Position numbers and translations under genes: made by a program. A model generated the notes under the pieces. The model did no database searches. It worked only from the letters and a program-made list of their open reading frames with translations, and was not told where the DNA came from. Positions 22,608 through 41,533 of a DNA stretch of 64,000 nucleotides are shown here, piece by piece. Position 1 is the first letter of the stretch; the number at the start of each line of letters is the position of its first letter. The DNA is from Solirubrobacterales bacterium (GTDB taxonomy: Bacteria; Actinomycetota; Thermoleophilia; Solirubrobacterales; Solirubrobacteraceae), in the NCBI GenBank assembly GCA_038330095.1, contig JBBQNQ010000001.1, positions 13,755 to 77,754 on the forward strand. Reading direction: 5' to 3'.

Positions 22608-22901
22608 TCAAGAAGGTACCAGCGGAACCGGCTGGTGTGTAGGGGGACCGAGCATGAACAGCTCGAGCTCGAGGTCGGGACCGACATGGTGAGTCGATAT
22701 GAACCTCGTGACCTGGCGGCCAGTGATGCGCTCGACCACAGAGATGAAGCGCGGCTCCATCGCCTGGTGGAAGGTGCTGCGCGTTTCGTGCACGAGCGCC
22801 TTGCGCTGCAGCTCGATCATCGTCTTCTCGACGCATGATCTGCGAGGTGTTCGTCCTCGCGCCCAGCGACGTAGTTCACTGAGCGCCGTCGACCCGGTCA
22901 A
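22608..22901 (-). CDS. DUF2294-like protein, apparently N-terminally truncated
   Basis: VEKTMIELQRKALVHETRSTFHQAMEPRFISVVERITGRQVTRFIS...DLELELFML matches only the C-terminal half of DUF2294. The expected GRGP-containing N-half is missing. Confidence 0.45.
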   Translation of the reverse strand: MTGSTALSELRRWARGRTPRRSCVEKTMIELQRKALVHETRSTFHQAMEPRFISVVERITGRQVTRFISTHHVGPDLELELFMLGPPTHQPVPLVPS

Positions 22902-22910: not shown

Positions 22911-23123
22911 TCAGGTCGGGTCGGTCGCGATCATCACGTCGGAGGCTTTGACCACGGCGGTGACCTCGGCGCCTTCGGTGATGCCGAGCTCGTCCACCGC
23001 TTCGACGGTGATCGAGGCGACTACGCGCTGGCCGCCGACGTCGAGCTCGACGTTGGCGATCGACGCCCCGCGAGCGACCTTCGTCACGGTGGCGCGGAGC
23101 TGGTTGCGAGCGCTGATGCGCAT
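22911..23123 (-). CDS. mop: molybdenum-pterin binding (Mop/TOBE) protein
   Basis: 70 aa. MRISARNQLRATVTKV...ASDVMIA is the canonical single TOBE/Mop domain. Confidence 0.85.
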   Translation of the reverse strand: MRISARNQLRATVTKVARGASIANVELDVGGQRVVASITVEAVDELGITEGAEVTAVVKASDVMIATDPT

Positions 23124-23156
23124 CGGGTGTTCTCCTTGTCGTGGCGGAGGTTGAGC

Positions 23157-24221
23157 CTAGAGGTCGAGCAGCCGCGTGGCAGCGGCTTTCCAGGTTGCGG
23201 TCACCTTGGCGCCAGGGGCGAGGGCGAGTTGCCGAGCGGCGGTCTCGGTGATCTCGGCCGCGACGGGCTGCGGGCCGGCGAGGCCGAGGCGCACGCGGTT
23301 GCCGACCGAGGTGATGGAGACGATCTCGACCGCCAGGTGGTTCTGGGCCGAGCCCGTCGGGGGGACGCCGGCATGCTCGATCGCAATCTCCCACGGAAAG
23401 ACGCTGACCGCGACGGGGCCGCGCGCGTGATCGAGTGCCGTGACCCTGCCGCCGCCGTCGAGATCGACGACGGTGACTCCATCTTCGCCGGCGCGGGCGC
23501 TGCCGGTCAGCACGACGGCGCCGGTGAAGTCGGCGACGAACGCGGTCGCCGGGGTGGCGGCGAGCTCGCTGGCGCTGCCCCGCTGGATGATGCGACCACC
23601 GTCGATGATGGCGGCTTGGGTGCCGAGCAGCGCGGCCTCCGAGAAGTCGTGCGTGACGAGCACGGTGGGGACGTCGATGGCGCGCAGGATGTTTGTGAGC
23701 TCCCGCGCGGCGCGCGCCCGCGTGCGCGAGTCCAGCGCCGACAGCGGTTCGTCGAGGAGCAGGGCGCTGGGCCGGCGGGCGAGCGCTCGCGCCAGCGCGA
23801 CCCGCTGACGTTCACCGCCTGAGAGCGTGCCGGGGCGCGCATCTGCGAGCGCGGCGATGCCCAGGCCCTCGAGCAGCTCGTGCGCGCGCGCGCGGCGCCG
23901 CGCGCGAGATTGCCCGCGCAGCGCGTAGGCGACGTTCTGCCAGACCCGCAGGTGCGCAAAGAGCGCGTAGTCCTGGAACACGTAGCCGCAGCGCCGGCGC
24001 TCCGGCGGCGCATCGATGCCCTGCGCGGTGTCCAGCCAGACCTCGTCCTCGCACTCCACGCGCCCGCGGTCAGGCGCCGCCAGGCCGGCGATGATGCGCA
24101 GCAGCGTGCTCTTGCCGGCTCCGGACGGCCCGGCAAGAGCCAGGCACTCGCCGGCAGGGACTTCGAGCGCTGCGTTGAGCTCGAACGTGCCCAGCCGCGT
24201 GCTGGCGTCAATGCGCAGCAC
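23157..24221 (-). CDS. modC: molybdate ABC transporter ATP-binding protein with C-terminal TOBE domain
   Basis: Walker A GPSGAGKST, signature LSGGERQRVALARAL, C-terminal TOBE. Confidence 0.9.
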   Translation of the reverse strand: MLRIDASTRLGTFELNAALEVPAGECLALAGPSGAGKSTLLRIIAGLAAPDRGRVECEDEVWLDTAQGIDAPPERRRCGYVFQDYALFAHLRVWQNVAYALRGQSRARRRARAHELLEGLGIAALADARPGTLSGGERQRVALARALARRPSALLLDEPLSALDSRTRARAARELTNILRAIDVPTVLVTHDFSEAALLGTQAAIIDGGRIIQRGSASELAATPATAFVADFTGAVVLTGSARAGEDGVTVVDLDGGGRVTALDHARGPVAVSVFPWEIAIEHAGVPPTGSAQNHLAVEIVSITSVGNRVRLGLAGPQPVAAEITETAARQLALAPGAKVTATWKAAATRLLDL

Positions 24222-25026
24222 CGCGAAACGCCCCGTCTCCGGCCGCGAGCTTGACCGACAGGAGCAGCGCAGCGGAGACGATCACCAGTACGGCAGAGAG
24301 CGCGATCGCGCCGGTCAGGTCGGTCGCGAACTGGTCATAGATCGCGAGCGGCGTGGTCTGGGTGATTCCGCGAAACGACCCGGCGAAGATGAGCGTCGCG
24401 CCGAACTCACCGAGCGCCCGTCCCCAGGCGAGCGCCAGCCCGGCCAGCAGGCCCGGTCGCGCGGCGGGCACGGCGATCCGCGCGAACGTCGTCGCCTCGT
24501 TCGCGCCGAGCGTGCGCGACGCCTCCATCCAGCTGCGGTCGACTGCGCCGAAGGCCGCCTGGGCCTGGCGAAGGTAGAACGGCGCGGCGACGAAGGTCAG
24601 CGCCACGACGACCCCGGCCGTCTGCAGGACGAGCTCGATGTGCGCGTCGCGCAGCGCGTGCCCGAGCAGGCCGGCCGGGCCGAACGCCGTCAGCAGCGCG
24701 ATCCCGGCGACTGCGGGTGGAAGCACGAGCGGCAGCTCGACGAGCGTGATCACGACTGCGCGGCCAGGGAACGACCGGGTGGCCAGCAGGTAGGCCGCCG
24801 GCGTGCCGACGACCACGATGATCGCCACCGCGATCGCGGTCGTCTCCAGGCTGAGCTTGAGCGCGTCGGTGGCTACCGGGTCGCCGAGGCTGGCGACCAG
24901 GCGCGCGGGGCTGGTGTCGGCGAAGATCGCGACGATCGGCAAGACCAGGAACGCCAGCGCCACGACCACCGCCACCGCGAGCACCAACGAGAACCAGCCC
25001 GGCCGACGTCCCGGCCGGCGGCTCAC
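24208..25026 (-). CDS. modB: molybdate ABC transporter permease
   Basis: Six-TM permease with an EAS/EAA-type loop (EASRTLGANEATTFARIAVPAARPG). Overlaps modA and modC. Confidence 0.9.
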   Translation of the reverse strand: MSRRPGRRPGWFSLVLAVAVVVALAFLVLPIVAIFADTSPARLVASLGDPVATDALKLSLETTAIAVAIIVVVGTPAAYLLATRSFPGRAVVITLVELPLVLPPAVAGIALLTAFGPAGLLGHALRDAHIELVLQTAGVVVALTFVAAPFYLRQAQAAFGAVDRSWMEASRTLGANEATTFARIAVPAARPGLLAGLALAWGRALGEFGATLIFAGSFRGITQTTPLAIYDQFATDLTGAIALSAVLVIVSAALLLSVKLAAGDGAFRGAAH

Positions 25027-25796
25027 TTGGGGGGTGGGAGGAAGCCCGCCGCGCGCAGATCCTGCTGGCCGGGCCCGCGAAGCAGCCCCGCGATAAACGC
25101 CTGGGCCTCCTTCGGGTGCTTGGCTCCCTTCACGACCGCCACGCCGTAGGCGACCCGCGGCTGCAGGCTCGCGGGCAGCGCGACCGCCTTTGCCTTGCCC
25201 GAGCTGGCGGAGACGGCGGTGACATAGACGAACCCCGCATCGACGGCCTTCCCGGTGACCTTGGCGATCACGCCCTTCACGTCGGGTTCGTTGGAGCGCA
25301 CGTTGGCCAGGATCTTCTTCTCTTCCGCAGAGGGCAAGCCGGACAGGACGTTGCGCGTGTAGGCGCCGATCGGCACGCTCGCCGACCCGATCGCGATCGT
25401 CACGCCGGGCTCGGCCAGATCGCCTACCGAGCGCACCTTGCTCGAACCCGCCGGCGCCGCGATCACGAGCCGATTCGAGGTGAAGACGACCGGCTTTGAG
25501 ACGAGCCCCTTGCCGTACAGCATGTCGGGCAGCTTGGTGTTCGCGGCGGCGAACACGTCGGGCTTCACGCCGCGCTGGATCTGGGCCGCCAGCTCATCTG
25601 AGCCGGCGAACGAGAACTTCGCGTTGGCGTCGGTGAACTGGGTCCCGTACTCCGTGAACGCCTTCGTCAGCGACGCTGCCGCCGACACGGTCAAGTCCGG
25701 TTTGCTCCCGTCGCCCCCGCTCGAGCTCCCGCACCCGGTCGCGACCGCGAGGATGCCGGCCACGAGCATCGTGACCACCCTTACGCGTGCTCTCAT
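25023..25796 (-). CDS. modA: molybdate-binding lipoprotein
   Basis: Lipobox VATGCGSS plus the ModA fold pattern (TVSAAASL...FSFAGS...DVFAAAN). Confidence 0.9.
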   Translation of the reverse strand: MRARVRVVTMLVAGILAVATGCGSSSGGDGSKPDLTVSAAASLTKAFTEYGTQFTDANAKFSFAGSDELAAQIQRGVKPDVFAAANTKLPDMLYGKGLVSKPVVFTSNRLVIAAPAGSSKVRSVGDLAEPGVTIAIGSASVPIGAYTRNVLSGLPSAEEKKILANVRSNEPDVKGVIAKVTGKAVDAGFVYVTAVSASSGKAKAVALPASLQPRVAYGVAVVKGAKHPKEAQAFIAGLLRGPGQQDLRAAGFLPPPK

Positions 25797-26185
25797 TCCG
25801 CCCCGCCCTTTTCCACCATCACCGAGGTTGCCTTCACCGTCGCGGTAGCCGGTGCCCCGCGCACCAGCCTCAGCTCTTCGACGGCGTCACGTGTCACGGC
25901 CGCGGTGACGAGGAACGGACCCGCCTCGATCTCGACCAGCGCCATCACACCGTCGACCTCTACCGACCGGACCACACCGGCGAACCGGTTGCGCGCCGAC
26001 AAGTCATGCCCCGCCGCGTGGCGCTTGGGATGCGCCGCCAGGCGCTCGACCTCCGAGGAGGCGACAAGTCGGCGGTTTCGCTCGTCGCGTGTCGTGCGCA
26101 GCTTCCCCGCACGGTCCCAGCGACGCAGCGTGTCCACGCTCACCCCCAGCGCCTGAGCCGCTTCACCCAGCGACAAGTCCGCCAT
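25793..26185 (-). CDS. MerR/excisionase-type HTH + TOBE domain molybdenum-responsive regulator
   Basis: N-terminal LSLGEAAQALGVSVDTLRRWDRAGKL HTH. C-terminal SARNRFAGVVRSVEV...ATVKATSVMV TOBE. Overlaps the modA start. Confidence 0.8.
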   Translation of the reverse strand: MADLSLGEAAQALGVSVDTLRRWDRAGKLRTTRDERNRRLVASSEVERLAAHPKRHAAGHDLSARNRFAGVVRSVEVDGVMALVEIEAGPFLVTAAVTRDAVEELRLVRGAPATATVKATSVMVEKGGAE

Positions 26186-26187
26186 TG

Positions 26188-26204
26188 CCTAAGCATCGCA
26201 TAGG
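26188..26204. promoter_or_regulatory. imperfect palindrome CCTAAGC-ATC-GCATAGG next to the regulator start codon; candidate operator
   Basis: 7-3-7 inverted repeat with 6/7 matches, starting 3 nt upstream of the ATG at 26185. Confidence 0.3.
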
Positions 26205-26234
26205 CGGCTGGCGGTTGACGAACGGCATCGACGA

Positions 26235-26246
26235 GGGAGAGGGAGG
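26235..26246. repeat. 12-nt exact direct copy of the tRNA-Ser 3' end (GGAGAGGGAGGG); candidate distal att-like site
   Basis: Identical to 37211-37222 in the same orientation. It lies in the intergenic gap between the mod operon and the less GC-rich gene block. Confidence 0.3.
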
Positions 26247-26357
26247 GTCAAGTTCGGCCGCGGCGCCGTTCTGCGACGAATTAAGCCCACGCGCCGCACC
26301 TCCACCCCGGCGCCGAGCTGAGCGCCGCCGCGGCGAGCCCTACGCCGCCCGCCTGTC

Positions 26358-26378
26358 GGACCCCTCTGTCAGGGGTCT
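26358..26378 (-). terminator. hairpin directly after the stop of the 26380-26841 gene (copy 1 of a shared motif)
   Basis: GACCCCT-ctgtc-AGGGGTC. Flanks GTCGGACCCC and GGGTCTCC are shared with 41531-41553. Confidence 0.4.
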
Positions 26379-26379
26379 C

Positions 26380-26841
26380 CTAGGGAAGATGGATCAGGAA
26401 GGTGAAGCGGTCGCCGCTTGGTTGCTGTTGGACCCTCACGGTCCCGGTGGCGCGGGCGTAGCGGCCGGTACCACCAGTGATCGCCTGGGTGTAGGTGCGG
26501 GTGCCTCCTAGGCCGGGTTGTAGGAGCTGGACCATGACCTGCCCGCCCTGCAGGATGTAGGTGCCGGTGCACAGCGAGCGCTGGTCGAACAGCGTCGTGC
26601 ACGACGCGGCGTCACGGCCGATCACGCGGCCGTCTTGATCGAGCAGCTTCTCGGTGAAGATCACCGCGTCGCCGGCCGATCGCCCGGCTGGCGGGTTGTC
26701 AACCGATCGCGCCTGTTCGAGCTTGGACGTCGCTCGCAGAATGATCTTGCCGGGTCGCTCGCGTCCGTTCGCCGGCCCGGCCAGCGCGACTGCGCCGATC
26801 AGAGCCGGGCCGAGGATGCAGATTGCGATCGTCCGTCGCAT
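26380..26841 (-). CDS. secreted dirigent/allene-oxide-cyclase-barrel-like protein
   Basis: Signal peptide MRRTIAICILGPALIGAVALA, conserved Cys pair, ITGGTGRYARATG motif. GGAGG Shine-Dalgarno sequence before the ATG at 26841. Confidence 0.6.
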   Translation of the reverse strand: MRRTIAICILGPALIGAVALAGPANGRERPGKIILRATSKLEQARSVDNPPAGRSAGDAVIFTEKLLDQDGRVIGRDAASCTTLFDQRSLCTGTYILQGGQVMVQLLQPGLGGTRTYTQAITGGTGRYARATGTVRVQQQPSGDRFTFLIHLP

Positions 26842-26946
26842 GTCCCCTCCTTCGGTTGGCCGGTAAAAGTCGCCCTCCGCGAGACTATCGGCGTGGTGGA
26901 CCAGCCAATCGCTCATCGCGGCCGCGACGTCGTCCTCGGACTGTCA

Positions 26947-28504
26947 ATGGTCCTGCTCGCCGCGGCGTACTTGGCGGCGAGCCCGAAGACCGCGGATCTC
27001 GCTGCGAGTGAGTACCGGACCCATCTCCTCGCCACCGAGGGGTGGGCACTCATAAACCTCCAGTGGTACGGCGGGCACAACGTCCCGGGCTACTCCGTAG
27101 CGGTACCGGCGCTGGCTTCACTCATCGGGCCACGCGTCCTCGCGACCATCGCCGGAGCGCTGTCGGTGCTGCTCGTCGGTGTGGTGGTGAGCCCCCACAC
27201 GACAGCGCGCGCCCGGCTCGCGGTGATGCTGGCGTTCCTGCCCTCGGTGGCTGCCGGTGTCGTGATCGGCCGGGTCACCTTCACGGTCGGATGCGCCGTG
27301 GGCTTGGCTGCGCTGGCGGCAGCGGACCGCAGACGTGCTGTCCTTGCCAGTGCCTTGTCGGTGTCGACGGTGCTCTGCAGCCCCGTCGCGGGCTTGTTCC
27401 TTTGTGTCGCCTCCGCCGCCGCCGTGATCGGCGGCCGACCCGACGATCGACGGCGGTGGAGCGTTCTGGCCGGGACGACGCTCCTGGTGAGCGTGCTGCT
27501 CAACGTCCTGATCTTCCCCGAGGGAGGTGCGCAGCCGGATCCCGCCTCGTCCTTCCTGCCCGTGGCCGCAGTGGGGCTTGGCGTCGTGCTCGTAGCGCCT
27601 GTCGGGCGACGCTCGGTGCGCATCGGCTGGCCTCCTTGCGCTCGCGCTTCTAGTGGCGTCCTACGCGATCCCCTCTCCGATGGGATCCAATGCCGACAGG
27701 CTCGTCGTCAGCTTCGGACCCGCGGCCCTGGTCGCCGCATGGTCCTCCCTTCCAGCGGGGGTCAGAGGTCGATCCCTCCCCATCACCTCGGCGCTCGTCC
27801 TCGTCCTCGGCGCACTGCTGTTCCACGAGGTCCGACCGGCCGTCGACGCCGTTGCCAACTCAGTGGACGACCGATCGACCCAGCGCTCCTATTACGACCC
27901 CTTGCTCCGGTTCCTTGCGCGTTCCGCCGGACCCGGGGATCGGATCGAGATTCCCTTGACCCTCAACCACTGGGAGACGGCGTACGTGGCGCCGTCGTTC
28001 GCGCTTGCCCGAGGTTGGGAGAGGCAGCTCGACGTCAAGTACAACGGGCTGTTCTACGACGGCCGTGGTCTGACCGCACGCCGGTACGAGCGCTGGTTGC
28101 GCCGGTCCGGGGTGCGCTGGATCGCGCTGCCGAGCTCCACCCTGGACAGCTCTGCGCGCCAGGAGCCTCGCATACTGCGATCCTCGCCCTCGTATATCCG
28201 ACGCGCCTTCGCCTCTAGGGACTGGACGATCTGGGAGTACCCTCGCGGAAGGACGGTCCAAGGTCCCGCACGTATCACGGCCGCCGACGCCGACGCGGTC
28301 GACCTCACGGCCACCCGAAACGGCAGCGTCCTGCTGCGCATCCACTACACGCCCTACCTGAGGCTGGTGGCCGGCGCAGGGTGCATCGGTCCAAGCCGCC
28401 TTGGCTGGACCCGCCTTACGGTGAAGCGGCCGGGCCGTCTCACGCTTGACTCGGGCTTCTCAGTCCGACAGTTCCTGTCGGACGACCCGATCTGCCGCAA
28501 CTAG
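26947..28504 (+). pseudogene. large polytopic membrane protein with C-terminal extracytoplasmic domain, interrupted by a +1 frameshift (GT-C-like, family uncertain)
   Basis: The N-part runs in the frame of ORF 26635..28218 and the C-part in ORF 27653..28504. The second frame opens at 27596, and hydrophobic helices continue across the junction (27596-27630). Confidence 0.55.
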
Positions 28505-28560
28505 AGCCGGCTCATGGCAGCTTTATGTGGCGTTTCGCCGGCGTCGTGACCCTTTCGGCC

Positions 28561-29580
28561 ATGGGGTCCAGGTTGACTCGGGCTGCCGCTCTGGTAGGCG
28601 TCGGCTGCGCGTGCGCGTGGCTCGGCTGCGGGGGCGGAAGCGGTGTTCGCCAGGCGCGGAGCGGCGCCGGCGATCGGGCGGCGCGCCCTCCGGCCCCGGC
28701 ACGTCGATCGGCGCGTCCGCCGCGCCTCGTGGCCGACCGGCGGCCGCTCAGCCGGCTTCCGGTGGCCGTGCAGGGCGCCGCCTCGGTGCTCAGTGGCGGC
28801 CGCATCGTGGTCATGGGCGGGCTTACCGCGAATGGGACATCCAGCCAGGACGTAGTGGCCGTTCCTCCCGCCGGTGGACGCGCGCGCATCGTCGGTTCGC
28901 TGCCTCGTCCTGCGCATGACGCCGCCGCCATCGCACTCGGCCCCCGGGTGATCCTCCTCGGTGGAGGGCCGGTGGAGGGCACCGATCAGATCGTCCGTGT
29001 CCTGCCGGGCCCGGCTGCACAGGCAGGATCGCTGCGCCGGCCGCTGTCGGACGGCGTCGGAGTGACCGTCGGCGGGGCGGGCTACCTCGCCGGGGGATGG
29101 GATTCGACCGTCCTCGATCCGAGGATCTACCGGGTGGCGCCGAACGCCACGGCAAGGCCGATCGGCCGGCTCCCGGTCGGAATCCGCTATCCGGCGGCCG
29201 CCGCGATCGGCGGACGCATCGTGATTGCCGGAGGCGAGACGGCGGCCGGTGTCGCCAGCGCGGATGTGTGGTCGTTCGACCCTCGGACCAGGAAGGTTGT
29301 GGCCGGGCCTCGGCTCCCGACCGCGATCGATCACGCCGCCGGCGCGGCGCTGGGTGGACGCTTCTACGTGATCGGCGGGCTGAGGGGCGGTGCGCCGTGG
29401 TCGGGCGTGCTCTCGTGGGCGCCCGGTGAGCAGCGCTTCAGCCGCGCCGGGCGGCTTCCGCGCGCGCTGGCCGACGCGTCGGCTGTCCCGGCTGGAGCGG
29501 GGATCGTGCTCGTCGGGGGCCGGACCGGTGGCGGCCGGGTCGGGGATGTATGGCTCCTTCGCGCCAGGGCCCGGAGATGA
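28561..29580 (+). CDS. Kelch-repeat beta-propeller lipoprotein
   Basis: Lipobox AWLGCGG. Repeated units with GGRIVVMGG / RVILLGGG / GYLAGGW / RIVIAGGE / RFYVIGGL / GIVLVGGR. Confidence 0.75.
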   Translation: MGSRLTRAAALVGVGCACAWLGCGGGSGVRQARSGAGDRAARPPAPARRSARPPRLVADRRPLSRLPVAVQGAASVLSGGRIVVMGGLTANGTSSQDVVAVPPAGGRARIVGSLPRPAHDAAAIALGPRVILLGGGPVEGTDQIVRVLPGPAAQAGSLRRPLSDGVGVTVGGAGYLAGGWDSTVLDPRIYRVAPNATARPIGRLPVGIRYPAAAAIGGRIVIAGGETAAGVASADVWSFDPRTRKVVAGPRLPTAIDHAAGAALGGRFYVIGGLRGGAPWSGVLSWAPGEQRFSRAGRLPRALADASAVPAGAGIVLVGGRTGGGRVGDVWLLRARARR

Positions 29581-29661
29581 AGGCGAGGGCAGCCTCCTAC
29601 CGCTCCTCTGGGATGATCCATTGGCATCGGGGCCCCAGCTCAGTCCACCAGAGGAGGCCGC

Positions 29662-30105
29662 ATGGCCGGTCGGTTCGAGGCGAATGTTGTGATCGACCGT
29701 CCGATCGAGGAGGTGTTTGCCTTTCTCGCGGACGGTGAAAACGATCCGAAGTTCAGCCCGAGGGTCCTGGAAATGGCCAAGACGACCGACGGGCCGCCCG
29801 GCGTCGGCACCGTCTACGCAAGCACGGTCAAGGACGCCGGGATGAAGACCAAGCGGGAGTTCAAGCTCACCGAGTTCGAGCCGCCCGAGCGAATTCGCTG
29901 GGCGGAGGTCTCCAAGAACCTCGTCACGGCCCCCGAGGGTGGCTACGACCTCGCTCGGGAGGGGAGCGGGACCCGACTCACGGTCTACAACGTGCTCGAG
30001 GGACACGGTCCGGGCAAGCTGATCGCCCCGCTCGCCCTGCGCTCCGCCCGCAAGGGTGCGGACGACTTCGCGAACGCGATCAAGACGGCCGTAGAGGGGT
30101 CCTGA
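29662..30105 (+). CDS. SRPBCC (polyketide cyclase/dehydrase-like) family protein
   Basis: 147 aa. VIDRPIEEVFAFLAD...RIRW pattern. Confidence 0.75.
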   Translation: MAGRFEANVVIDRPIEEVFAFLADGENDPKFSPRVLEMAKTTDGPPGVGTVYASTVKDAGMKTKREFKLTEFEPPERIRWAEVSKNLVTAPEGGYDLAREGSGTRLTVYNVLEGHGPGKLIAPLALRSARKGADDFANAIKTAVEGS

Positions 30106-30113
30106 GGCAGGGC

Positions 30114-31004
30114 ATGCACTCGAGTGAGCTGGCGGGCACCGTCGGGGCGTTGTGGCGATTTCCGGTGAAGTCGATGTTGGGCGAGCAGCTCGACGCGGTC
30201 GATTTGGGTGAGGGCGGAATCGTCGGTGACCGCACGTATGCGCTTCGAGATCGGGAAACGGGCAAGGTCGCGAGCGCGAAGCACCCCAAGCTGTGGCCCG
30301 ACCTGCTCGCGTGCCGGGCCGCCTTCGTCGAGGCGCTGCGCCCGGGCGACGAGCTGCCGCCGGTGCGAATCGAGCTCGCCGACGGAACTTCGGTGCTGAG
30401 CGACGCTGCGGATGTCGACGCCGTGCTGTCGCGGTTCTTTGGCCGCGATGTGGAGCTGGCCCACGCCGCGCACAATGGCTACACGATCGATCAGTACCAC
30501 CCTGACGAGGATGACTTCGACCCTGAGGGACACCGCGACGAGATCACTGAAACGCAGCTCGGTGCGGCGTTCTTCAACGAGCGGGGGCTTCCCTCGGCTG
30601 TCCCCGAAGGCTCGTTCTTTGACCTCTTCCCGCTCAGCGTCCTGACCACGTCAAGCCTGGACCAGCTGGCCGAGCTCGAACCACAGAGCCGGTTCGACGC
30701 GCGGCGGTTTCGCATGAACGTGATCGTGGACAGCCCCGCGCGTGGCTTCGTCGAGAACGATTGGCTCGGGCGCACGCTCTCGATCGGCGACGACGCACAG
30801 ATCGCCGTGGCCCTGCCGGATCCCCGCTGCGTCATGCCAAGCCTTGCCCAGCAGGACCTCCCCAGAGATCCCCAGATCCTCAAGGCCCTCGCCCGGCACA
30901 ACAGAATCGACGTCGCAGGCGCGCTCTACCCCTGCGCCGGCGTCTACGCCATCGCCCAATCGACAGGCACGGTCCGCAAAGACGACGCCGTCAACCTGAT
31001 CTGA
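30114..31004 (+). CDS. MOSC domain protein (N-terminal beta-barrel + MOSC)
   Basis: LWRFPVKSMLGE...GIVGDRTYAL ... RFRMNVIV ... PDPRCVMP motifs. Confidence 0.8.
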   Translation: MHSSELAGTVGALWRFPVKSMLGEQLDAVDLGEGGIVGDRTYALRDRETGKVASAKHPKLWPDLLACRAAFVEALRPGDELPPVRIELADGTSVLSDAADVDAVLSRFFGRDVELAHAAHNGYTIDQYHPDEDDFDPEGHRDEITETQLGAAFFNERGLPSAVPEGSFFDLFPLSVLTTSSLDQLAELEPQSRFDARRFRMNVIVDSPARGFVENDWLGRTLSIGDDAQIAVALPDPRCVMPSLAQQDLPRDPQILKALARHNRIDVAGALYPCAGVYAIAQSTGTVRKDDAVNLI

Positions 31005-31029
31005 GCTCGCCGGCCGTCATTGACCGCGT

Positions 31030-31190
31030 TTGACGGCCTCCGAGTGGAGGGACCTGTTCGTAGCGACCGCAGGGGCTTCCGCGGCGCTTGCCGGCATGCT
31101 GTTCGTCGCGGTCTCGATCAACGTCGAGCGCATCCTGAACTTCGCCGGCCTTCCGGAGCAAGCGCTGGCGGTAGTCCTGCTCGCGTCACG
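31030..31190 (+). pseudogene. 5' remnant of a small multi-TM membrane protein gene
   Basis: TASEWRDLFVATAGASAALAGMLFVAVSINVERILNFAGLPEQALAVVLL looks like the first ~55 aa of a small membrane protein. The remainder is replaced by the 3' end of the convergent gene. Confidence 0.3.
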
Positions 31191-31225
31191 CCGGTTCCTG
31201 AACTGGCCCATGTCGCCTAGGGCGA

Positions 31226-31623
31226 CTATGCCGGCAGCCCGCCGGCTTCCAGGGCCTCCGACCACTCGACGAAGTACTCGAGCCGGACCATCCTCCCGTC
31301 GCGGAAGGTCCGAGCTGGTGATACAGCTGCCCTTCGACCACTACCCCGCTTCCCTTGCCCCGTGAGTAGTAGCGAAGCCGGGTCGCCACGTGGTCACCAC
31401 CAACGACGAACTCCTGCGGATCGAGCCTCAACTCCTTGAAGGTGTCGTCGAGGTTTGCCCAGAAGCGCCTGATCTCGTCCGGGCCCCTGCAGGAGTCCGA
31501 GCTCTGGCGCGCAGGAAGCACCCACTCGATCTCGGGATCAAAGTTCTCGACGGCAGCGTCGAAGTCACGCCGGTTGTAGGCCGCGATGTAGTCCCGGGCC
31601 TTGGCGAGGTTCTCCTGCGACAT
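31226..31623 (-). pseudogene. SnoaL/NTF2-like protein with a 1-nt frameshift near the 3' end
   Basis: The N-part reads MSQENLAKARDYIAAYNRRDFDAAVENF...GQLYHQL. Shifting frame at about 31305-31312 gives FRDGRMVRLEYFVEWSEALEAAGLPA-stop (stop at 31226). The track frame gives low-complexity junk. Confidence 0.6.
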
Positions 31624-31643
31624 CGGTCAGGAGTACGCGCGAG

Positions 31644-32042
31644 TCAGTCCGCCGGCCACCAGCCCGGCTCGCTCTCGCCGTCGCCCTCCTCGGGTCGCGG
31701 ACCGCCGATCGCGATCAATTCGATCCCCTCCTCGCCGGCCTCGATCGCGCGCATGACCTCGGGGGCGACGCGCACGACATCCCAGCGGCGCAGGTCGATG
31801 ATGTCGTCGTCGAGCTTCATCCGGCCCGATCCGGCGACGACGACGTATGCCTCCTCCTGCTCACGGTGGTAGTGGCCGAAGGGGGGCCGAAAGCCCGGGG
31901 CGTAGCTGAAGAAGCTCACCCCGAGGTGCTTGGAGTACAGCGCGGACCTGCCGAGGCGCGCCTCGACGCTTCCGGCAGCCGGGCTTCCCTCAGAGGCGTC
32001 GCGGATGTCCTCGCGCAGGTTCTTGTGGGTGAAGCCAGGCAT
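31644..32042 (-). CDS. cupin domain protein
   Basis: FGHYHREQEEAYVVVAGSGRMKLDD cupin motifs. ATG at 32042. Confidence 0.75.
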   Translation of the reverse strand: MPGFTHKNLREDIRDASEGSPAAGSVEARLGRSALYSKHLGVSFFSYAPGFRPPFGHYHREQEEAYVVVAGSGRMKLDDDIIDLRRWDVVRVAPEVMRAIEAGEEGIELIAIGGPRPEEGDGESEPGWWPAD

Positions 32043-32090
32043 CGCCGCCCACTCTAGCCCGGCACACGAGGGTACGCTTCCTTCCTCGCC

Positions 32091-32918
32091 ATGCAAGACC
32101 CCGGACCAAGCCTCCCGCCCGATTCGCGTGGTGAGGGGCCCGGCCGCGATCGCCTCGTAGGCCGTCGGATCCTCGTCGTAGGCGGCGGCCAGCAGACGCA
32201 CGGGCTCGAGGACCCGCCGATCGGAAACGGGCGCGCCATGTCCGTTCTGTTCGCCCGCGAGGGGGCGGCCGTCGCGGTAGCGGACCTCGACGCAGAGTCG
32301 GCACAGGCGACCGTCGAGCTCGCCGAGCACGAAGGCGGCCGGGTGCTCGCCCTACAGGCCGACGCCGCCGACGAGGACGCCGTGCGCCGGATGTTCGAGC
32401 AGGCGGGCGAAGGCCTTGGCGGGCTCGACGGGGTGGTCCTGAACGTCGGCGTCGGCGCCGGCTTCGGCCTGGCTGGCACCAGCGTCGAGGACTGGGATCG
32501 CGTGCTCGCGGTCAACCTGCGCGCGCACTTCCTCGGCTGCAAGCAGGCGCTCGGCACGCTCGGCGACGGCGGGGCAGTCGTGCTGGTGGGCTCCCTGGCC
32601 GGGCTGGAGTACATCCCGATCCCCGCCTACGGCGCCTCCAAGGCAGCGCTCGAGAGCCTCACGCGGTCGGCGGCCGTCGAGGGCGCGCCACGGGTGCGCG
32701 TGAACCTCCTGGTCCCGGGCCTGATCGACACCTCGCTCGGACGGCTCGCCACCAAGCTGGCGCCGGACCGAGCCAAGGTGCACATCCCGCTGCGGCGTCA
32801 GGGCACGGCGTGGGAGGTCGCCCACGCCGCCCTCTATCTGCTCTCGCACGAGGCCGCATACGTCACCGGAACGTCGCTCGTGGTCGACGGCGGGCTCTCG
32901 CAGGCGCCGCGCCGGTAG
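32091..32918 (+). CDS. short-chain dehydrogenase/reductase
   Basis: VVGGG...IGNG cofactor region, YGASKAAL catalytic motif, C-terminal YVTGTSLVVDGG. Confidence 0.8.
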   Translation: MQDPGPSLPPDSRGEGPGRDRLVGRRILVVGGGQQTHGLEDPPIGNGRAMSVLFAREGAAVAVADLDAESAQATVELAEHEGGRVLALQADAADEDAVRRMFEQAGEGLGGLDGVVLNVGVGAGFGLAGTSVEDWDRVLAVNLRAHFLGCKQALGTLGDGGAVVLVGSLAGLEYIPIPAYGASKAALESLTRSAAVEGAPRVRVNLLVPGLIDTSLGRLATKLAPDRAKVHIPLRRQGTAWEVAHAALYLLSHEAAYVTGTSLVVDGGLSQAPRR

Positions 32919-32919
32919 C

Positions 32920-33768
32920 TCAGTACCCGGGCGGATTCGCTGACTCGACGAACAGGTCGACCCCGAGCTCGGCGTCGGCATCCGCGGCGCTGTACTTGGT
33001 CAGGTCGGTGACGCCCGCCTCGACGAGCACGTCCTCGCACAGGAACGCGTTGCCGGTGGACTCGCGACTGGGCCGGGTGAGAACCTCGTAGGCGGCGTCG
33101 GCGTAGACGGCGGGCGTCCGCGCCCGGCGCATCGCCTCGTCGCCGCCGAGCAGGTTCTGGACGGCAGCGGTGGCCACGAGCGTGCGCGGCCACAGCGCGT
33201 TGGACGCGATGCCCGCCTCGCGGAGCTCCTCCGCCAGCCCGAGCGCGACGAGCGTCATGCCGTACTTCGCGATCGTGTACGCGGTGTGCGGCGCGAGCCA
33301 CCGCGGCTCGAGCGAGATCGGCGGGGAGAGCGTGAGGATGTGCGGGTTGGTCCCGTTCCGGAGATGGGGTACGCACGCCTTCGACACGACGAAGGCCCCG
33401 CGCGTGTTGATGTCCTGCATGAGGTCGTAGCGCTTCATCTCGATCGCCTCGACGCCCTGCAGGTTGATCGCGCTCGCGTTGTTCACGCAGATGTCGATCC
33501 CGCCGAAGCGCTCGACGGCCTGGGCCGCCGCCTCGTTCACCGCGCCTTCGTCCCGGATGTCGCCGACGATCGGGAGCGCCTTCCCACCGGCCCGCTCGAT
33601 CTCCTCGGCGGCCGTGTACACGGTCCCCTCGAGCTTGGGGTGCGGCTCGGCCGTCTTTGCGATCAGGGCGACGTTCGCGCCGTCGCGGGCCGCGCGCAGC
33701 GCGATCGCAAGGCCGATCCCCCGGCTCGCGCCGGAGATGAACATGGTCCTGTCGCGAAGGTCGGTCAT
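32920..33768 (-). CDS. SDR family oxidoreductase (HSDL2-like subgroup)
   Basis: ISGASRGIG, NNASA and YTIAKYG motifs. Confidence 0.85.
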   Translation of the reverse strand: MTDLRDRTMFISGASRGIGLAIALRAARDGANVALIAKTAEPHPKLEGTVYTAAEEIERAGGKALPIVGDIRDEGAVNEAAAQAVERFGGIDICVNNASAINLQGVEAIEMKRYDLMQDINTRGAFVVSKACVPHLRNGTNPHILTLSPPISLEPRWLAPHTAYTIAKYGMTLVALGLAEELREAGIASNALWPRTLVATAAVQNLLGGDEAMRRARTPAVYADAAYEVLTRPSRESTGNAFLCEDVLVEAGVTDLTKYSAADADAELGVDLFVESANPPGY

Positions 33769-33793
33769 GAGCAGAACCTACCTGCGCGTGCCC

Positions 33794-34464
33794 TCAGCCA
33801 GCGTGCTCGTACTGATCGTGCAGGTGCCACCATTGGTAGGGCGGGGTCTGGGGGTAGCCCTCCGGCGAGTCCTCCCACTCCTCCTCGCGTCCGAGCGCCG
33901 TGATGTCGAGGTAGCTCCAGGTGCTGCCCATCGCCTCGTCGCCGCGGTTGTTGACGAAGTAGGTGCGAAAGACGCGGTCGCCCTCGCGCAGGAAGGCGTT
34001 GGTGCCATGCCACTGGTCGACGCCGAAGTCCGCGTCGAAGTCGTCGGTGAGGGTGAACCACGGGATCTCCCATCCCATCCGCGCCTTCCAGCGCTGGATG
34101 TCCGCCAGGGGCGCGCGCGACACGAACGCGAGCGTGGTGTCGCGGGCGTTGAGGTGGGCGAGGTGGGCGACCTGGTCGGCGAGGAACGAGCAGCCGACGC
34201 ACCCGCGCTCGGGCCACCCGGCGACGCCCGGCTCGAAGAAGAAGCGGTAGACGATCAGCTGCCGCCGGCCGGCGAACAGGTCGAGCAGGTCGCCTTGCCG
34301 TCGGGCCCCTCGAACTCGTACTCCTTCTCCACGGCCACCATCGGCATGCGCCGCCGCTTCGCCGCCAGGGCGTCACGGGCGCGGGTCAGCTTCTTCTCCT
34401 CGACCAGCAGCTCCTCGTGCGCAGCATCCCACTCCTGGGGGGAAACGATCGGTGGTGTGTTCAT
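33794..34464 (-). pseudogene. DUF899 thioredoxin-like protein with a 1-nt frameshift
   Basis: The N-part (MNTPPIVSPQEWDAAHEELLVEEKKLTRARDALAAKRRRMPMV...YEFEGPDGKA) and C-part (LLDLFAGRRQLIVYRFFFEPG...CVGCSF...YQWWHLHDQY) are in different frames. The switch is at about 34286-34292, in a C/G run. Total length is 3n-1. Confidence 0.7.
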
Positions 34465-34600
34465 CTCGGCCTGTCCTCCTTCAGCTACTGGATGGCGCCG
34501 GCGCGTGCAGGTCTTGATCATTTTCCGCTATGACCGCCGGAGGGCCCCGAAATCATCGCTCGAACGACCTGTCGTCGCTGGCGCAATAGGCTTCGCCGCC

Positions 34601-35572
34601 GTGGGAGTTGGTTGCTTCGTCCTGGCGGGCCGCTCGCTCGACCGCGCCGTCGCGCGCGTCAAGCTCGCCGAGGAGCTCGGCTACGAGGCCGTCTACCTGA
34701 CCCACGTCGCGGGGCACGAGCCGTTCATCGTCCTGACGGCATACGCGCTCGCGACGCAGCGCATTCGCCTGGGCACGGGCGTCACCCCGATCTACACGCG
34801 GACGCCGGCGAACATGGCCCAGACCGCTGCGACGGTCGACGAGCTCAGCGCCGGGCGGCTCAACCTGGGGATCGGCGTCTCGCACCGGCCGGTGGTCGAG
34901 GGCTGGTACGGGCAAACGATCGACAAGCCGGTCCGCGAGATGCGCGAGTACGTCGCGATCGTGCGAGCGATCCTGACCGGCGAGGACCCGCCGGCGGGCG
35001 AGAAGTGGCGCACCGGCTTTCGCCTGGCTGGGCTCGAGCCCCGGCCCGAGCTGCCGATCTACGTCGCGGCGCTCTCCCCGGCCATGCTGCGGGCCGCGGG
35101 TGAGATCGCCGACGGCGTCGTGCTGTGGCTGTGCAATCCCGAGTACATCGAGCGCGTCGTCGTCCCCGAGGTGACGCGCGGGCGCGAGCGCGCGCAGCGG
35201 CGGCTCGAGGGCTTCGACATCGTCGCCGCGGTGCCCTCGGCGGCTACCGAGGACGTCGACTCCGCCTACAGCATGATGCGCCGCGAGCTGCTGACCTACT
35301 TCGGCCTGCCGTTCTACCGGGCGATGCTCGAGCGTTCGGGCTACGAGGACGACATCGCCGCATTCGATCAGGCGGCCGGCAGCGGCGATGCCGACGTGAT
35401 GCAGGCGGCGATCTCCGAACGCTTCCTGCGCGCGCTGACCGCGGTCGGGGACGAGGCGGCGGTGCGCGAGGGCATCGAGCGCTACCGAGCCGCCGGCACG
35501 ACGTCGCCGTGTGTCGGGGGCATCCCGAAGACGGACTACGAGGCCACGCTTCGCGCTGCCGCGCCACGGTGA
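34601..35572 (+). CDS. LLM-class (luciferase-like) F420/flavin-dependent oxidoreductase
   Basis: AEELGYEAVYLTH...RLNLGIGVSH...LPIYVAAL pattern. GTG at 34601 chosen. Confidence 0.8.
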   Translation: MGVGCFVLAGRSLDRAVARVKLAEELGYEAVYLTHVAGHEPFIVLTAYALATQRIRLGTGVTPIYTRTPANMAQTAATVDELSAGRLNLGIGVSHRPVVEGWYGQTIDKPVREMREYVAIVRAILTGEDPPAGEKWRTGFRLAGLEPRPELPIYVAALSPAMLRAAGEIADGVVLWLCNPEYIERVVVPEVTRGRERAQRRLEGFDIVAAVPSAATEDVDSAYSMMRRELLTYFGLPFYRAMLERSGYEDDIAAFDQAAGSGDADVMQAAISERFLRALTAVGDEAAVREGIERYRAAGTTSPCVGGIPKTDYEATLRAAAPR

Positions 35573-35643
35573 GGCGCGCTCTCGTCCCTGCTCGTTGCGC
35601 TTGTCCTGGTTGAGGACGGAACCTGACCTAAATCGCGAATAGG

Positions 35644-36546
35644 TTGAGCGCACCCGAGAGTCAGCGACCGAGAGGAGCAGCCGTGCCCGAGCGAGACGAA
35701 TACATCCCCGGCGTCCCCTGCTGGGTGGACACGAGCCAGCCCGATCCCGAGGCTGCCGTCGCCTTCTACCGCGACCTCTTCGGCTGGGAGCTCGAGGACG
35801 TGATGCCGCCGGGATCGGAGGCCAAGTACTTCATCGCCAAGATTCGAGGCGGCGACGTCGCCGCGGTCGGATCGATCCCCGAGCAGGCGCCGCCTGCGGC
35901 GACATGGAACACCTACATCTCGGTCGAGAGCGCGGACGCGACGGCGTCGAAGGTCCGCGATGCCGGCGGCAGCGTCGTGATGGACCCGTTCGACGTCATG
36001 AACGCCGGGCGGATGGCGGTGTTCACCGATCCCGAGGGAGCGTTGTTCTGCGCATGGGAGGCGAAAGCGCAGAAGGGCGCGCAGATCGTCAACGAGCACG
36101 GCAGCCTGAACTTCAACGTCCTCAACACGCGCGACGCCGTACAGCGAAAGCGTTTTTACGGCTCGGTGTTCGGCTGGACGACACTCGACCTGGGGGGTGG
36201 CGCCCAGATGTGGTCGCTTCCCGGCTACGGCGACCACCTCGAGCGCGACAATCCCGGCCTCCGCAAGGGTATGGCGGAGATGGGTGCCCCAAAGGGCTTC
36301 GAGGACGTTGTCGCGTCGATCTTGCCGATTCCGGACGACCAGCCGGACGTGCCCGCGCACTGGGGGGTGACGTTCGGCGTCGACGACGCGGATGCCGTCG
36401 CTGACAACGCGTCCAAGCTCGGCGGCAATGTGCTCGTCCCGCCGCTAGATGGTCCGTGGGTCCGGATGACGGTCATCGCCGACCCACAAGGCGCGACGTT
36501 CACGGCGAGCAAGTTCGTCCCCGAGAACCGCGACCTCGCCGCCTAG
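35644..36546 (+). CDS. VOC (glyoxalase/bleomycin-resistance) family protein, two-module
   Basis: PCWVDTS...FYRDLFGWE...AVFTDPEGALF, repeated in the second half (FYGSVFGWT...VIADPQGATF). The start could be GTG at 35683. Confidence 0.75.
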   Translation: MSAPESQRPRGAAVPERDEYIPGVPCWVDTSQPDPEAAVAFYRDLFGWELEDVMPPGSEAKYFIAKIRGGDVAAVGSIPEQAPPAATWNTYISVESADATASKVRDAGGSVVMDPFDVMNAGRMAVFTDPEGALFCAWEAKAQKGAQIVNEHGSLNFNVLNTRDAVQRKRFYGSVFGWTTLDLGGGAQMWSLPGYGDHLERDNPGLRKGMAEMGAPKGFEDVVASILPIPDDQPDVPAHWGVTFGVDDADAVADNASKLGGNVLVPPLDGPWVRMTVIADPQGATFTASKFVPENRDLAA

Positions 36547-36609
36547 GCCGAAGCCGAGGACCGAGTCGGGGCCGACGACGTCGAGCCTGAAGCCGGAGAA
36601 GCTTCCGGT

Positions 36610-36632
36610 GCGCCGTACCGAGGTTACGGCGC
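36610..36632. terminator. hairpin between convergent VOC genes
   Basis: GCGCCGTA-ccgaggt-TACGGCGC, a perfect 8-bp stem. No clear U-tract. Confidence 0.3.
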
Positions 36633-36730
36633 AAAGCGTCGTGCCGATTTAGGCGCCGACGCGGGTCCCGCCCGGCAGCTGGCGGCCGTCGGGGCCGAAC
36701 ACCTCACCGGCGAACCGCGCGCGGGGCGAG

Positions 36731-37138
36731 CTAGCCGCGGGCAGATATCTGCTGCACGGCCCACGCATTGCCGTCCGGATCGCTGAAGAAGACGAACCCG
36801 ACGTTGTCGAGCGCGTGCGGCTGCGGACTGGGATTCTCGCCCATGACCTGGATTTCGCTGACCTCCACCCCTCGCTCTGCGAGCTGAGCACGTGCCACCT
36901 GGAGGTCGGAGACGACCAGCTGCAAGCCCTTGAGCGAGCCCGGTGGCATGTCCGGGACGATCCCCTCACCCACGACGATCGAGCAGCCCGACCCGGGAGG
37001 GGTGAGCTGAACGATCCGATTCCCCTCGCTGACCTGGGTGTCGTGATCCACGCTGAACCCGAGCCGCTCGGCGTAGAAGGCCTTAGAACGGTCCACGTCC
37101 GAGACCGGAACCACCACCACTTCCAGCGTCCAGTTCAT
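36731..37138 (-). CDS. VOC/glyoxalase family protein
   Basis: 135 aa. VPVSDVDRSKAFYAERLGF ... FFSDPDGNAWAVQ. Confidence 0.8.
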   Translation of the reverse strand: MNWTLEVVVVPVSDVDRSKAFYAERLGFSVDHDTQVSEGNRIVQLTPPGSGCSIVVGEGIVPDMPPGSLKGLQLVVSDLQVARAQLAERGVEVSEIQVMGENPSPQPHALDNVGFVFFSDPDGNAWAVQQISARG

Positions 37139-37209
37139 GTTGCGTCTCCTTGTGCGTTGTGGTCACGATCCCTTCAGGTCAGAGACCGCCCAGCTAACCA
37201 CGAGGGAGA

Positions 37210-37299
37210 CGGAGAGGGAGGGATTCGAACCCTCGAACGAGGTTGACCCCCGCTACGCGATTTCCAGTCGCGCCCGTTCAGCCGCTCCGGCACCTCTCC
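37210..37299 (-). tRNA. tRNA-Ser (anticodon GGA)
   Basis: GGAGAGGTGCCGGAGCGGCTGAACGGGCGCGACTGGAAATCGCGT...GAGGGTTCGAATCCCTCCCTCTCCG. 7-bp acceptor stem, CUGGAAA anticodon loop, long variable arm, GTTCGAATC T-loop. CCA is not encoded. Confidence 0.9.
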
Positions 37300-37334: not shown

Positions 37335-38531
37335 TTAGACGCGCCAGGAGCGGTCGATGAGCACGGGCACCCGGTCGCCGTCGGCGGTGATGCCCGAGAC
37401 CTTGATCTCGGGGGCTCCGATCATGAAGTCGATGTGGATCTCGCTGTCGTTGATGCGCTCGAGATCGGGGTCCTCGACGCCCATCGGGTAGGCGCGGCCA
37501 AAGGCGATGTGGCTTGCCGCGTTCTCGTCGAGCAGGGTGTCGTAGAAGATCGTGTCCAGCGCGCCGATGCGGCCCTCTCCGTCGACCAGGGCGAGCTCGC
37601 CGAGCCGTGCGGCGCCCTCGTCGCGACCGGTTCGCGTGCGCAGGGCGTCGACGCCGGTGTCCGCCTGCACGTCGACCGCCCGGCCGCCCTCGAAGCGCAC
37701 GCGCAGGCCGCGGACCGTCGTTCCCTGGAGGTCCAGCGGCTTGGTCGAGGTGACCCAGCCCTCGGTGCGTGCGGGATCGGGCGAGGTGAAGACCTCCTCG
37801 GAGGGAAGGTTGGGAAGGTGGACGATTCCGCCGACGGTCTCCATGCGGGCCGCAAGCCAGCGCGAGGTAGGCAGCAGGCCGACGCGCAGATCGGTGCCCG
37901 GGCCCTCGAAGTGCAACAGGTCGAAGCGGCGCTCGGTGAGGCGCTGGGCGACCGCGCTCAGCGCGTCGAAGCGCTCGTTCCACGCCGCGGCAGGGTCGGG
38001 CTCGTCCAGGCGGCAGACGTGGGCGATCTGCTCCCACAACCGCTCGAAGGCCGCGCCCGGCTCGAGGTCCGGGTGCACGAGGGTCGCCCACCCGGTGGTC
38101 GGCGCCGGCACGATCGACCAGTTGGTCGTCGACTCGGCGACGAGCTTGGCGGCCTCCTTGATCCAGGGAAGCATGTCCGTGCCGGCGCGCAGCGGGTCGA
38201 GATCGTCGAACAGGCCGGGCGCCGCGTTGCCGCTCAGCGCGATACGGGCGCAGCGCTGGTCACCGAGCGCGAGGACACGCTCGCCGTACCAGGAGGGCAC
38301 GAACTCCAAAGTGTCCTCGGCGGCATGCCGCAGCCGGGCTCGCTTGACCCACGGGTCGAAGTAGGTGACGTCGACGAAGCGCGCGCCGTGCCGGTAGGCG
38401 CTCTCCGCCACCGCCCGGGTGAGTGACTCCTTGCCGGGCTCGGAGCCGAGAGCGACGATCTGCCCCGGCTGCACGTTGGCGCCTGACACGACAACGAGGT
38501 CGGCCAGGCGTCGCTCCAGATCCTCGAACAC
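37335..38531 (-). CDS. M29 family aminopeptidase (AmpS/PepS-like)
   Basis: GANVQPGQIV, YFDPWV and a conserved C-terminal EIHIDFMIG. GTG at 38531 is preferred. ATG at 38603 would overlap the divergent gene start. Confidence 0.8.
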   Translation of the reverse strand: MFEDLERRLADLVVVSGANVQPGQIVALGSEPGKESLTRAVAESAYRHGARFVDVTYFDPWVKRARLRHAAEDTLEFVPSWYGERVLALGDQRCARIALSGNAAPGLFDDLDPLRAGTDMLPWIKEAAKLVAESTTNWSIVPAPTTGWATLVHPDLEPGAAFERLWEQIAHVCRLDEPDPAAAWNERFDALSAVAQRLTERRFDLLHFEGPGTDLRVGLLPTSRWLAARMETVGGIVHLPNLPSEEVFTSPDPARTEGWVTSTKPLDLQGTTVRGLRVRFEGGRAVDVQADTGVDALRTRTGRDEGAARLGELALVDGEGRIGALDTIFYDTLLDENAASHIAFGRAYPMGVEDPDLERINDSEIHIDFMIGAPEIKVSGITADGDRVPVLIDRSWRV

Positions 38532-41369: not shown

Positions 41370-41533
41370 GGCGAAGCGCCTGGCGGTGCTTCGAGCGCCC
41401 CCTCCCTCTCTCTCGTCGCCCCAGACCACGCGGCGCACGCCAGCCCGGCGCGAACGGAGCGCCGCGCGGCGAGCCCGACGCCGCCCGTGCGGGAGAACGT
41501 GGGCGCAGGGAGATCGTCGCCTCCAAACGAGTC

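Follow-up and report, generated by a model that had tools for sequence, protein, structure and literature searches.

A 12-nucleotide match to the end of tRNA-Ser(GGA) in a Solirubrobacterales genome belongs to a dispersed palindromic repeat and is not an attachment site

Genomic islands linked to tRNA genes include integrative islands of the tyrosine-integrase type, such as the pathogenicity and symbiosis islands and the integrative and conjugative elements found at these genes. In a 64,000-nucleotide stretch of DNA from a Solirubrobacterales bacterium (contig JBBQNQ010000001.1, positions 13,755 to 77,754; this whole stretch is called the window below), a tRNA-Ser(GGA) gene is followed on its 3' side by an interval of about 11 kb, whose far end carries an exact copy of 12 nucleotides (nt) of the tRNA gene. 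An earlier note on this DNA proposed that the interval is an old, degraded island and that the two 12-mers are its left and right attachment sites (attL and attR). Another class of elements with which the locus can be compared are the MITEs, or miniature inverted-repeat transposable elements. The general properties of MITE-type elements of prokaryotes have been reviewed, and the known examples include Correia in Neisseria, Chunjie in Geobacter and QMITE1/2 in Coxiella (PMC10969869). The observations described here make it very probable that the 12-mer match is due to membership in the arm of a repeat resembling such elements, and that the interval is a mosaic rather than an island integrated at the tRNA.

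The tRNA-Ser(GGA) gene (37210-37299, minus strand) is recognized both by ARAGORN and by the Rfam model RF00005. Its T-stem and the 3' strand of its acceptor make up the 12-mer at 37211-37222, which stops one base before the discriminator. This 12-mer, which reads GGAGAGGGAGGG on the plus strand, has one other exact occurrence in the window, at 26236-26247, one base away from the coordinates given in the earlier note (26235-26246). The geometry described in that note stands. The distal copy is oriented like the tRNA copy and is located on the 3' side of the tRNA, in a 194-nt spacer between the start of a ModE-like gene (26185) and the stop codon of an AOC-like gene (26380). The identity of the two copies ends at 12 nt on both sides, leaving out the discriminator. 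The longer degenerate repeat that might have surrounded both sites was sought, as the earlier note had advised, and the gapped alignment mirrors only the low-complexity sequence of the repeat arm. The 180-nt tRNA region has five further 12-13-mers in common with the rest of the window, and the bare 12-mer therefore carries little weight.

The assembly to which the window belongs (G000; 3.13 Mb in 173 contigs, 71.7% GC, 90.6% complete) contains the 12-mer 27 times. All 26 occurrences other than that in the tRNA have the same wider surroundings, either ...GAACGGCAT-CGACGAGGGAGAGGGAGGGG... or ...GGTCTGGGG-CGACGAGGGAGAGGGAGGGG..., often forming inverted pairs at a spacing of 40-190 nt, and all of them fall inside the arms of a repeat family, each arm being about 29 nt long (GAACGGCNN-CGACGAGGGAGAGGGAGGGG). 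As the 12-mer is a part of a dispersed repeat, the estimate of the earlier note that one such match would arise by chance with a probability of a few percent is beside the point. The 20-nt core of the arm has 18, 39 and 58 matches in the assembly with 0, 1 and 2 mismatches allowed, respectively, against none at all three levels for the reversed control. Intergenic spacers hold 56 of the 58 arms found with up to two mismatches, whereas 91% of the genome is coding according to the gene calls made here. The spacers occupied by the arms are convergent in 21 cases, tandem in 22 and divergent in one, the corresponding background being 152, 602 and 358. Given this bias, the repeat elements face the 3' ends of genes.

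Intact elements of the family are 65-200 nt long and consist of two inverted ~29-nt arms enclosing variable inner hairpin modules. They are predicted to fold with energies of -54 to -71 kcal/mol (z-scores of -4.4 to -9.4). At about 15 loci, one type of arm is followed by a conserved extension of ~70 nt (CCACGC..GAGCCCTACGCCGCC), called here the B extension. It is faced by the 3' end of the neighboring gene in 11 of the 16 loci where the neighbor is callable. Neither the B extension nor the family as a whole has a match in Rfam at the gathering or E-value thresholds.

The distal 12-mer is contained in the left arm (GAACGGCATCGACGAGGGAGAGGGAGGG) of a degenerate half-copy of this palindromic repeat (26219-26345, plus strand). 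The left arm is accompanied by a partial inner hairpin module and by a B extension of ~70 nt (26290-26353), and the right arm is absent. The copy can be aligned to six other members of the family over ~130 nt. A search with nhmmer and a profile of the arm detects it with an E-value of 1.1e-5 and leaves the tRNA locus unscored. Because its right arm is missing, the predicted fold of this copy is unexceptional (z-scores of +1.3 and +0.7). A short hairpin (GACCCCT...AGGGGTC; 26359-26377, minus strand) adjoins the B extension and follows immediately on the AOC-like gene's stop codon (26380-26382). The window contains a second half-copy at 41399-41553 (plus strand), which has a right arm (41399-41418), a B extension (41419-41487) and a terminal hairpin (41531-41553), and which adjoins the stop codon of a tgt-like gene (41558). 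In both window copies, the short terminal hairpin adjoins a minus-strand gene at its stop codon. The 12-mer at 26236-26247 belongs to a repeat that is spread through the genome and is not an attachment site.

The family is confined almost entirely to one lineage. With up to one mismatch, 41 arms are found in the genome studied here, two and four in its congeners G001 and G002, and none in the third congener, G003, and in 37 further members of the family and order. A search of 185,579 species genomes with a 19-nt core of the arm gave only 21 scattered single matches, which say nothing on the origin of the family. Papers on repeats of Solirubrobacter-like bacteria were also searched for, with no specific result.

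In many respects the repeat resembles a MITE. It is short, non-coding and present in many copies, has terminal inverted arms of ~29 nt, is almost exclusively intergenic and is often located in 3' untranslated regions, forms stable hairpins, occurs also as truncated or half copies and has expanded in a lineage-specific burst. It differs from MITEs in that terminal direct repeats are missing from 18 of the 23 two-armed elements and are 2-4 nt long in the remaining five, which is consistent with chance, and in that no autonomous insertion sequence (IS) with the same arms is seen in the assembly, which is fragmented into 173 contigs. The absence of target-site duplications is shared with the repetitive extragenic palindromic (REP) sequences and bacterial interspersed mosaic elements (BIMEs) associated with REP-associated tyrosine transposases (RAYTs), with the pneumococcal BOX elements and with SPRITE, which the family also resembles in being palindromic and extragenic (PMC10969869). 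Like the REP/BIME, BOX and SPRITE elements, it is modular, the number of its hairpin modules being variable, prefers the 3' ends of genes and is terminator-like. It has the many extragenic palindromic units of a REP or REPIN system. In contrast to such systems, no gene for a Y1 transposase (RAYT; PF01797) was detected in the 90.6%-complete assembly at E<=0.01, the arms are longer than those of classical REPs and there is no similarity to Rfam entries. We conclude that the family is a new, lineage-specific, MITE/REP-like palindromic intergenic repeat.

An identical 3' end of a transposase gene (...HNRRKTPMAAFQTLLGLSTQHRPSTYTDITTHAA*) is found at three contig ends of the assembly (C103:1-152, C46:24271-24422 and C92:9455-9590). 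These fragments are not bounded by arms and sit inside repeat copies of the GGTGGGTCGAA subfamily. They may come from an IS that targets the repeats.

The features that normally accompany a tRNA-linked island were looked for at and around the interval. Neither the window nor the rest of its contig (C1) contains a partial copy of the tRNA (at least 17 of the 22 bases at its 3' end), and the same is true of the variable regions of G001 and G002. Direct repeats that stem from the 3' end of the tRNA and mark only the two borders are thus lacking. A six-frame search of the contig with the integrase profile PF00589 gave no match at E<=0.1, no recombinase or other mobility gene is present among the Pfam-annotated genes called in the interval, and no tyrosine integrase was found in the matching region of the three congeners (G001, G002 and the G003 contig). 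The statement of the earlier note that the interval has no integrase is thus borne out, and neither an integrase nor its remnant stands beside the tRNA.

The base composition of the interval was evaluated as the GC content at third codon positions (GC3), using a codon model trained on long open reading frames (ORFs). The GC3 values of the 3101 genes called were ranked genome-wide (mean 0.912, 10th percentile 0.861). Seven consecutive genes at 25793-31623 occupy the 1st to 9th percentile, and this run is among the four longest of its kind in the assembly. The genes at 32091-36546 are similar to the flanks (14th to 91st percentile). The impression of the earlier note that genes between the 12-mers are poorer in GC3 is therefore correct for both examples that it named and for the run at 25793-31623, but not for the interval as a whole. 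Furthermore, the run begins at the ModE-like gene, to the left of the supposed attR. The ModE-like gene is native, as it is found beside modA in all three congeners, where it is 75-78% identical at the amino acid (aa) level. Another stretch of low GC3 is located elsewhere in the window, at 8800-14379, where four genes are at the 6th to 14th percentile. Within it, positions 9292-12673 match contig C2 of G002 with 70% nt identity.

The half of the interval that is proximal to the tRNA looks native. A block at 31186-36546, composed of genes for a SnoaL_2 protein, a cupin, two SDRs, a DUF899 protein (frameshifted), a luciferase-like monooxygenase and a two-domain VOC protein, is common to this genome and G002. 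The 31.2-36.5 kb DNA is 83-89% identical to contig C11 of G002 at the nt level, is roughly collinear with it and has the same orientation relative to the pepS-like gene next to the tRNA; the G002 copy of DUF899 is on contig C1 of that genome and not on C11. The VOC gene (glyoxalase fold; 35683-36546, plus strand) has a homolog with 67% aa identity that directly adjoins tRNA-Ser(GGA) in two metagenome contigs of more distant origin (L083 and L086, which may come from one organism), where PepS is 66% identical. As the divergence of this gene is like that of PepS, the tRNA-proximal end of the interval looks ancestral, with G002 carrying an insertion, and the VOC gene is probably an ancestral neighbor of the tRNA. 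A small VOC gene assigned with Pfam (36731-37138, minus strand) is situated between the shared block and the tRNA, 71 nt from the latter. It has only partial matches of 70-73% nt identity, which are elsewhere in G001 and G002.

These data can be used to evaluate the island proposed in the earlier note, in which 26.25-37.2 kb would have been inserted at tRNA-Ser by an integrase that was lost later, with the two 12-mers as attR and attL. The interval does resemble tRNA-linked islands in several ways. It lies directly 3' of the tRNA, the 12-mers are arranged and oriented as attachment sites would be, its content varies among relatives, none of which has the whole block beside the tRNA, its genes are an accessory mix, and pseudogenes and atypical GC3 occur in a part of it. 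It differs from them in that it has no integrase or integrase remnant, no direct repeat derived from the tRNA and no mobility genes, that the genes nearest the tRNA are core-like in composition and shared with relatives, and that atypical composition is limited to ~5 kb in its middle instead of extending over the whole element. In addition, the distal 12-mer is a repeat found at more than 40 other loci, and its identity to the tRNA has no greater length than that of other chance matches. With a distal 12-mer that belongs to a repeat, no partial tRNA copy, no integrase remnant and a native-looking tRNA-proximal half, an old, degraded 11-kb island is refuted in the form proposed, and this explanation is almost certainly wrong.

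The remaining part of the interval is the low-GC3 patch (26380-31623), as delimited by the GC3 percentiles. Its six genes, with GC3 values of 0.77-0.86, are the AOC-like gene (26380-26916, minus strand), a frameshifted gene for a hypothetical protein of ~490 aa (26980-28504, plus strand), a Kelch gene (28525-29580, plus strand), an SRPBCC gene (29662-30105, plus strand), a MOSC gene (30114-31004, plus strand) and the SnoaL_2 gene (31186-31623, minus strand) that is also the first gene of the block shared with G002. The accessory content listed in the earlier note for the whole interval (AOC-barrel-like, Kelch, SRPBCC, MOSC, cupin, SDR, luciferase-like monooxygenase and VOC proteins) agrees with the Pfam assignments. 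The DNA at 26.9-31.0 kb has no match in the genus (G001-G003).

Some genes of the interval appear to be decaying. The hypothetical gene is frameshifted near 27630-27660, and seven full-length homologs (464-493 aa, 38-46% identical) align across its two frames; the named ones are from Solirubrobacterales or Thermoleophilaceae. The DUF899 gene (33794-34464, minus strand) has Pfam matches in two ORFs, and its blastn comparison with the G002 homolog places a deletion of 1 nt near 34290. These two are the ones confirmed out of the three frameshifted genes that the earlier note had counted in the interval. The AOC-like and SnoaL genes have GC3 values of 0.80 and 0.77 here versus 0.94 for both orthologs in G002, a drop that hints at relaxed selection.

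Other genes of the patch seem to be foreign. The SRPBCC protein is 76-82% identical to proteins of genomes from two other families (f3 and f4), and it has no match at E<=1e-10 in its own genus. The MOSC protein is 78% identical (79% at the nt level) to that of a genome from yet another family (G025, family f2), and the match spans exactly the gene. The best MOSC matches within its own genus and family are only 45-48% identical. For the core protein encoded at 47908-48870, by comparison, the identity is 78-85% in the genus, 61-69% in the family and 54-65% in other families. The MOSC gene has a GC content of 0.66 and a GC3 of 0.83, versus 0.65 and 0.80 at the locus in G025, a genome of lower GC. 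Judged from these identities, the SRPBCC and MOSC genes may represent horizontal transfers of single genes, with the direction of transfer inferred, rather than a block transferred together, and their donors might have been other families of the same order. The Kelch and frameshifted hypothetical genes have homologs of only 34-44% identity among 40 relatives and give no signal of origin. Downstream of the MOSC homolog in G025, about ten SnoaL-like ORFs are arranged in tandem (11660-19794 of L070; G025:C1:1269000-1288999).

What survives of the island idea is weaker: accessory, partly foreign and partly decaying DNA is present near the tRNA, and its limits coincide with neither the 12-mer nor the tRNA.

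The limits of the variable DNA can be defined by two conserved anchors. The first is a pepS-like gene for an M29 aminopeptidase (37335-38531, minus strand), which is linked to tRNA-Ser(GGA) across the family, in all 16 genomes fetched; the tRNA is also present in 59 of 80 metagenome loci. The second is a puu-like cluster identified with Pfam (GlnA-like, peptidase C26, aldehyde dehydrogenase and SDR; 14392-18552, minus strand). It shares its contig and its orientation with the pepS-tRNA pair, and the distance between the two anchors is 18.6 kb in the present genome, 9.6 kb in G001 and 65 kb in G002. As this cluster is a conserved second anchor, the variable stretch is 18.55-37.2 kb and not 26.2-37.3 kb. 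Besides the interval, it contains a class-2 lipase gene (18655-19545, plus strand) and an MMPL transporter gene (19600-21747, plus strand), whose orthologs are on other contigs in G002 and G003, and a molybdate operon assigned with Pfam (ModE-like, modA, modB, modC and TOBE; 22911-26185, minus strand). The operon is kept as a unit in G001-G003 (56-78% aa identity) but has other neighborhoods there, and its homology stops at 26204/26205, just before the repeat. Between a SnoaL gene and this operon, an ORF of 70 aa at 22608-22820 (minus strand, GC3 of 0.79) matches only the C-terminal half of MpsC (profile positions 56-109 of 111) and is probably a truncated remnant.

These anchors bring up the possibility that the whole of 18.6-37.2 kb is a larger and older plasticity zone, a hotspot at the 3' end of tRNA-Ser(GGA) in which successive integrase-mediated insertions have eroded and lost their integrases and attachment sites. 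The tRNA 3' end (...GGTTCGAATCCCTCCCTCTCCG) is kept in 16 relatives and the flank diverges straight after the discriminator in all of them, which speaks for such a hotspot, and the spacing of the anchors differs strongly between the congeners. Moreover, G002 has ~33 kb of genes with lower GC3 (0.77-0.90) between tRNA-Ser(GGA) and the VOC gene (L022/L037; C11:86700-114600), including MMPL, beta-helix, methyltransferase, two-component system, ABC/FtsX, cupredoxin and BNR genes, and here too there is no integrase. However, no tyrosine integrase was found in the region in any of the four genomes (for G003, in its contig), serine recombinases not having been searched genome-wide, and no partial copies of the tRNA were found. 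The genes nearest to the tRNA look native in the present genome, and rearrangement is equally frequent across 1-41 kb of the window, away from the tRNA. A hotspot of this kind is therefore unlikely.

The reading that we prefer, that the match is due to a repeat arm and that the interval is a mosaic, can be described as follows. The conserved 3' end of tRNA-Ser(GGA), formed by its T-stem and acceptor strand (CCCTCCCTCTCC), is equal to the arm core of the palindromic repeat by coincidence. The repeat would have spread in the form of non-autonomous, MITE/REP-like elements, whose copies would persist as terminator-like structures located in 3' untranslated regions. The half-element at 26219-26345 is degenerate and stands behind the AOC-like gene. 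Rather than a discrete integrated island, the 11-kb interval is a part of the 18.6-kb variable stretch between the pepS-tRNA-Ser and puu-like anchors, which was probably assembled piecemeal from: 1) the native block beside the tRNA (31.2-36.5 kb); 2) the relocated mod operon; 3) the low-GC3 patch of ~5 kb (26.4-31.6 kb), consisting of decaying genes and of single genes from other families of the same order.

Several observations weigh against this reading or limit its power. Most of the window from 1 to 41 kb is rearranged relative to G002, the only long collinear block being at 41.5-57 kb. As breakpoints occur at almost every operon boundary in 1-41 kb, the loss of synteny is not specific to the interval and the comparison has limited power. 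For the same reason, the idea that the repeats mark synteny breakpoints was dropped, even though both window copies are at breakpoints with G002 (26205/26379 and 41371/41562). The frameshifts are possibly assembly errors. The nearest relatives available are only 75-80% identical in PepS, and none of them shows an empty site at the borders of the interval; a scan of metagenomes for closer pepS relatives gave a best identity of 79%, so that no empty site of the same species could be examined. Neither an autonomous element nor target-site duplications nor a RAYT could be found for the repeat.

The last of these observations concerns the tRNA itself. Its flank at 37198-37209, TCTCCCTCGT in the sense of the tRNA, matches the arm in 10 of 10 positions directly after the discriminator, so that the tRNA end together with its flank is equivalent to a repeat arm with a 6-nt insert. 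An arm match of this length is found in ~0.7% of intergenic 20-nt windows. The flank is specific to the genome in which the family has expanded and is absent from the 16 relatives; it may have originated by slippage, as a remnant of an arm or by chance. The resemblance between the tRNA and the arm may thus be more than a coincidence. In its strongest form, this would mean that the resemblance is functional: the family arose from the tRNA end, recombines with it or inserts at it, and microhomology drives the turnover of the DNA nearby. Such kinship, by descent or mechanism, would rest on the matches of 12 of 12 and 10 of 10 positions, and the tRNA flank would then be an integrase-free, repeat-mediated recombination hotspot that shuffles the neighboring genes. 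Nevertheless, a functional link is very unlikely. The sequence is C/T-rich and of low complexity, and the observation was made post hoc. The alignment requires a 6-nt gap, which a slippage duplication of TCTCC can explain, and the arm profile gives the tRNA locus no score. None of the ~45 other repeat loci examined was seen to have a tRNA beside it, in a check that was not systematic.

A riboswitch for c-di-AMP (ydaO/yuaA leader, RF00379, 81 bits) is located at 4690-4861 of the window (minus strand), upstream of a minus-strand gene at 3701-4615.

Before a short and purine-rich match to the end of a tRNA is taken for an attachment site, the whole genome should be searched for it; in the present case, this changed a candidate island border into one copy of a dispersed repeat. 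The signal of SRPBCC and MOSC transfer and the 33-kb insertion that G002 carries at this tRNA represent ordinary genome flux around the tRNA. The repeat family, with ~45-60 loci in one uncultured Solirubrobacterales-like lineage, is nearly absent from the congeners. Although not surprising in kind, it is a clean case of a recent burst of MITE/REP-like hairpins in a high-GC actinobacterial metagenome-assembled genome, useful as a strain marker and for the study of structures at the 3' ends of genes.

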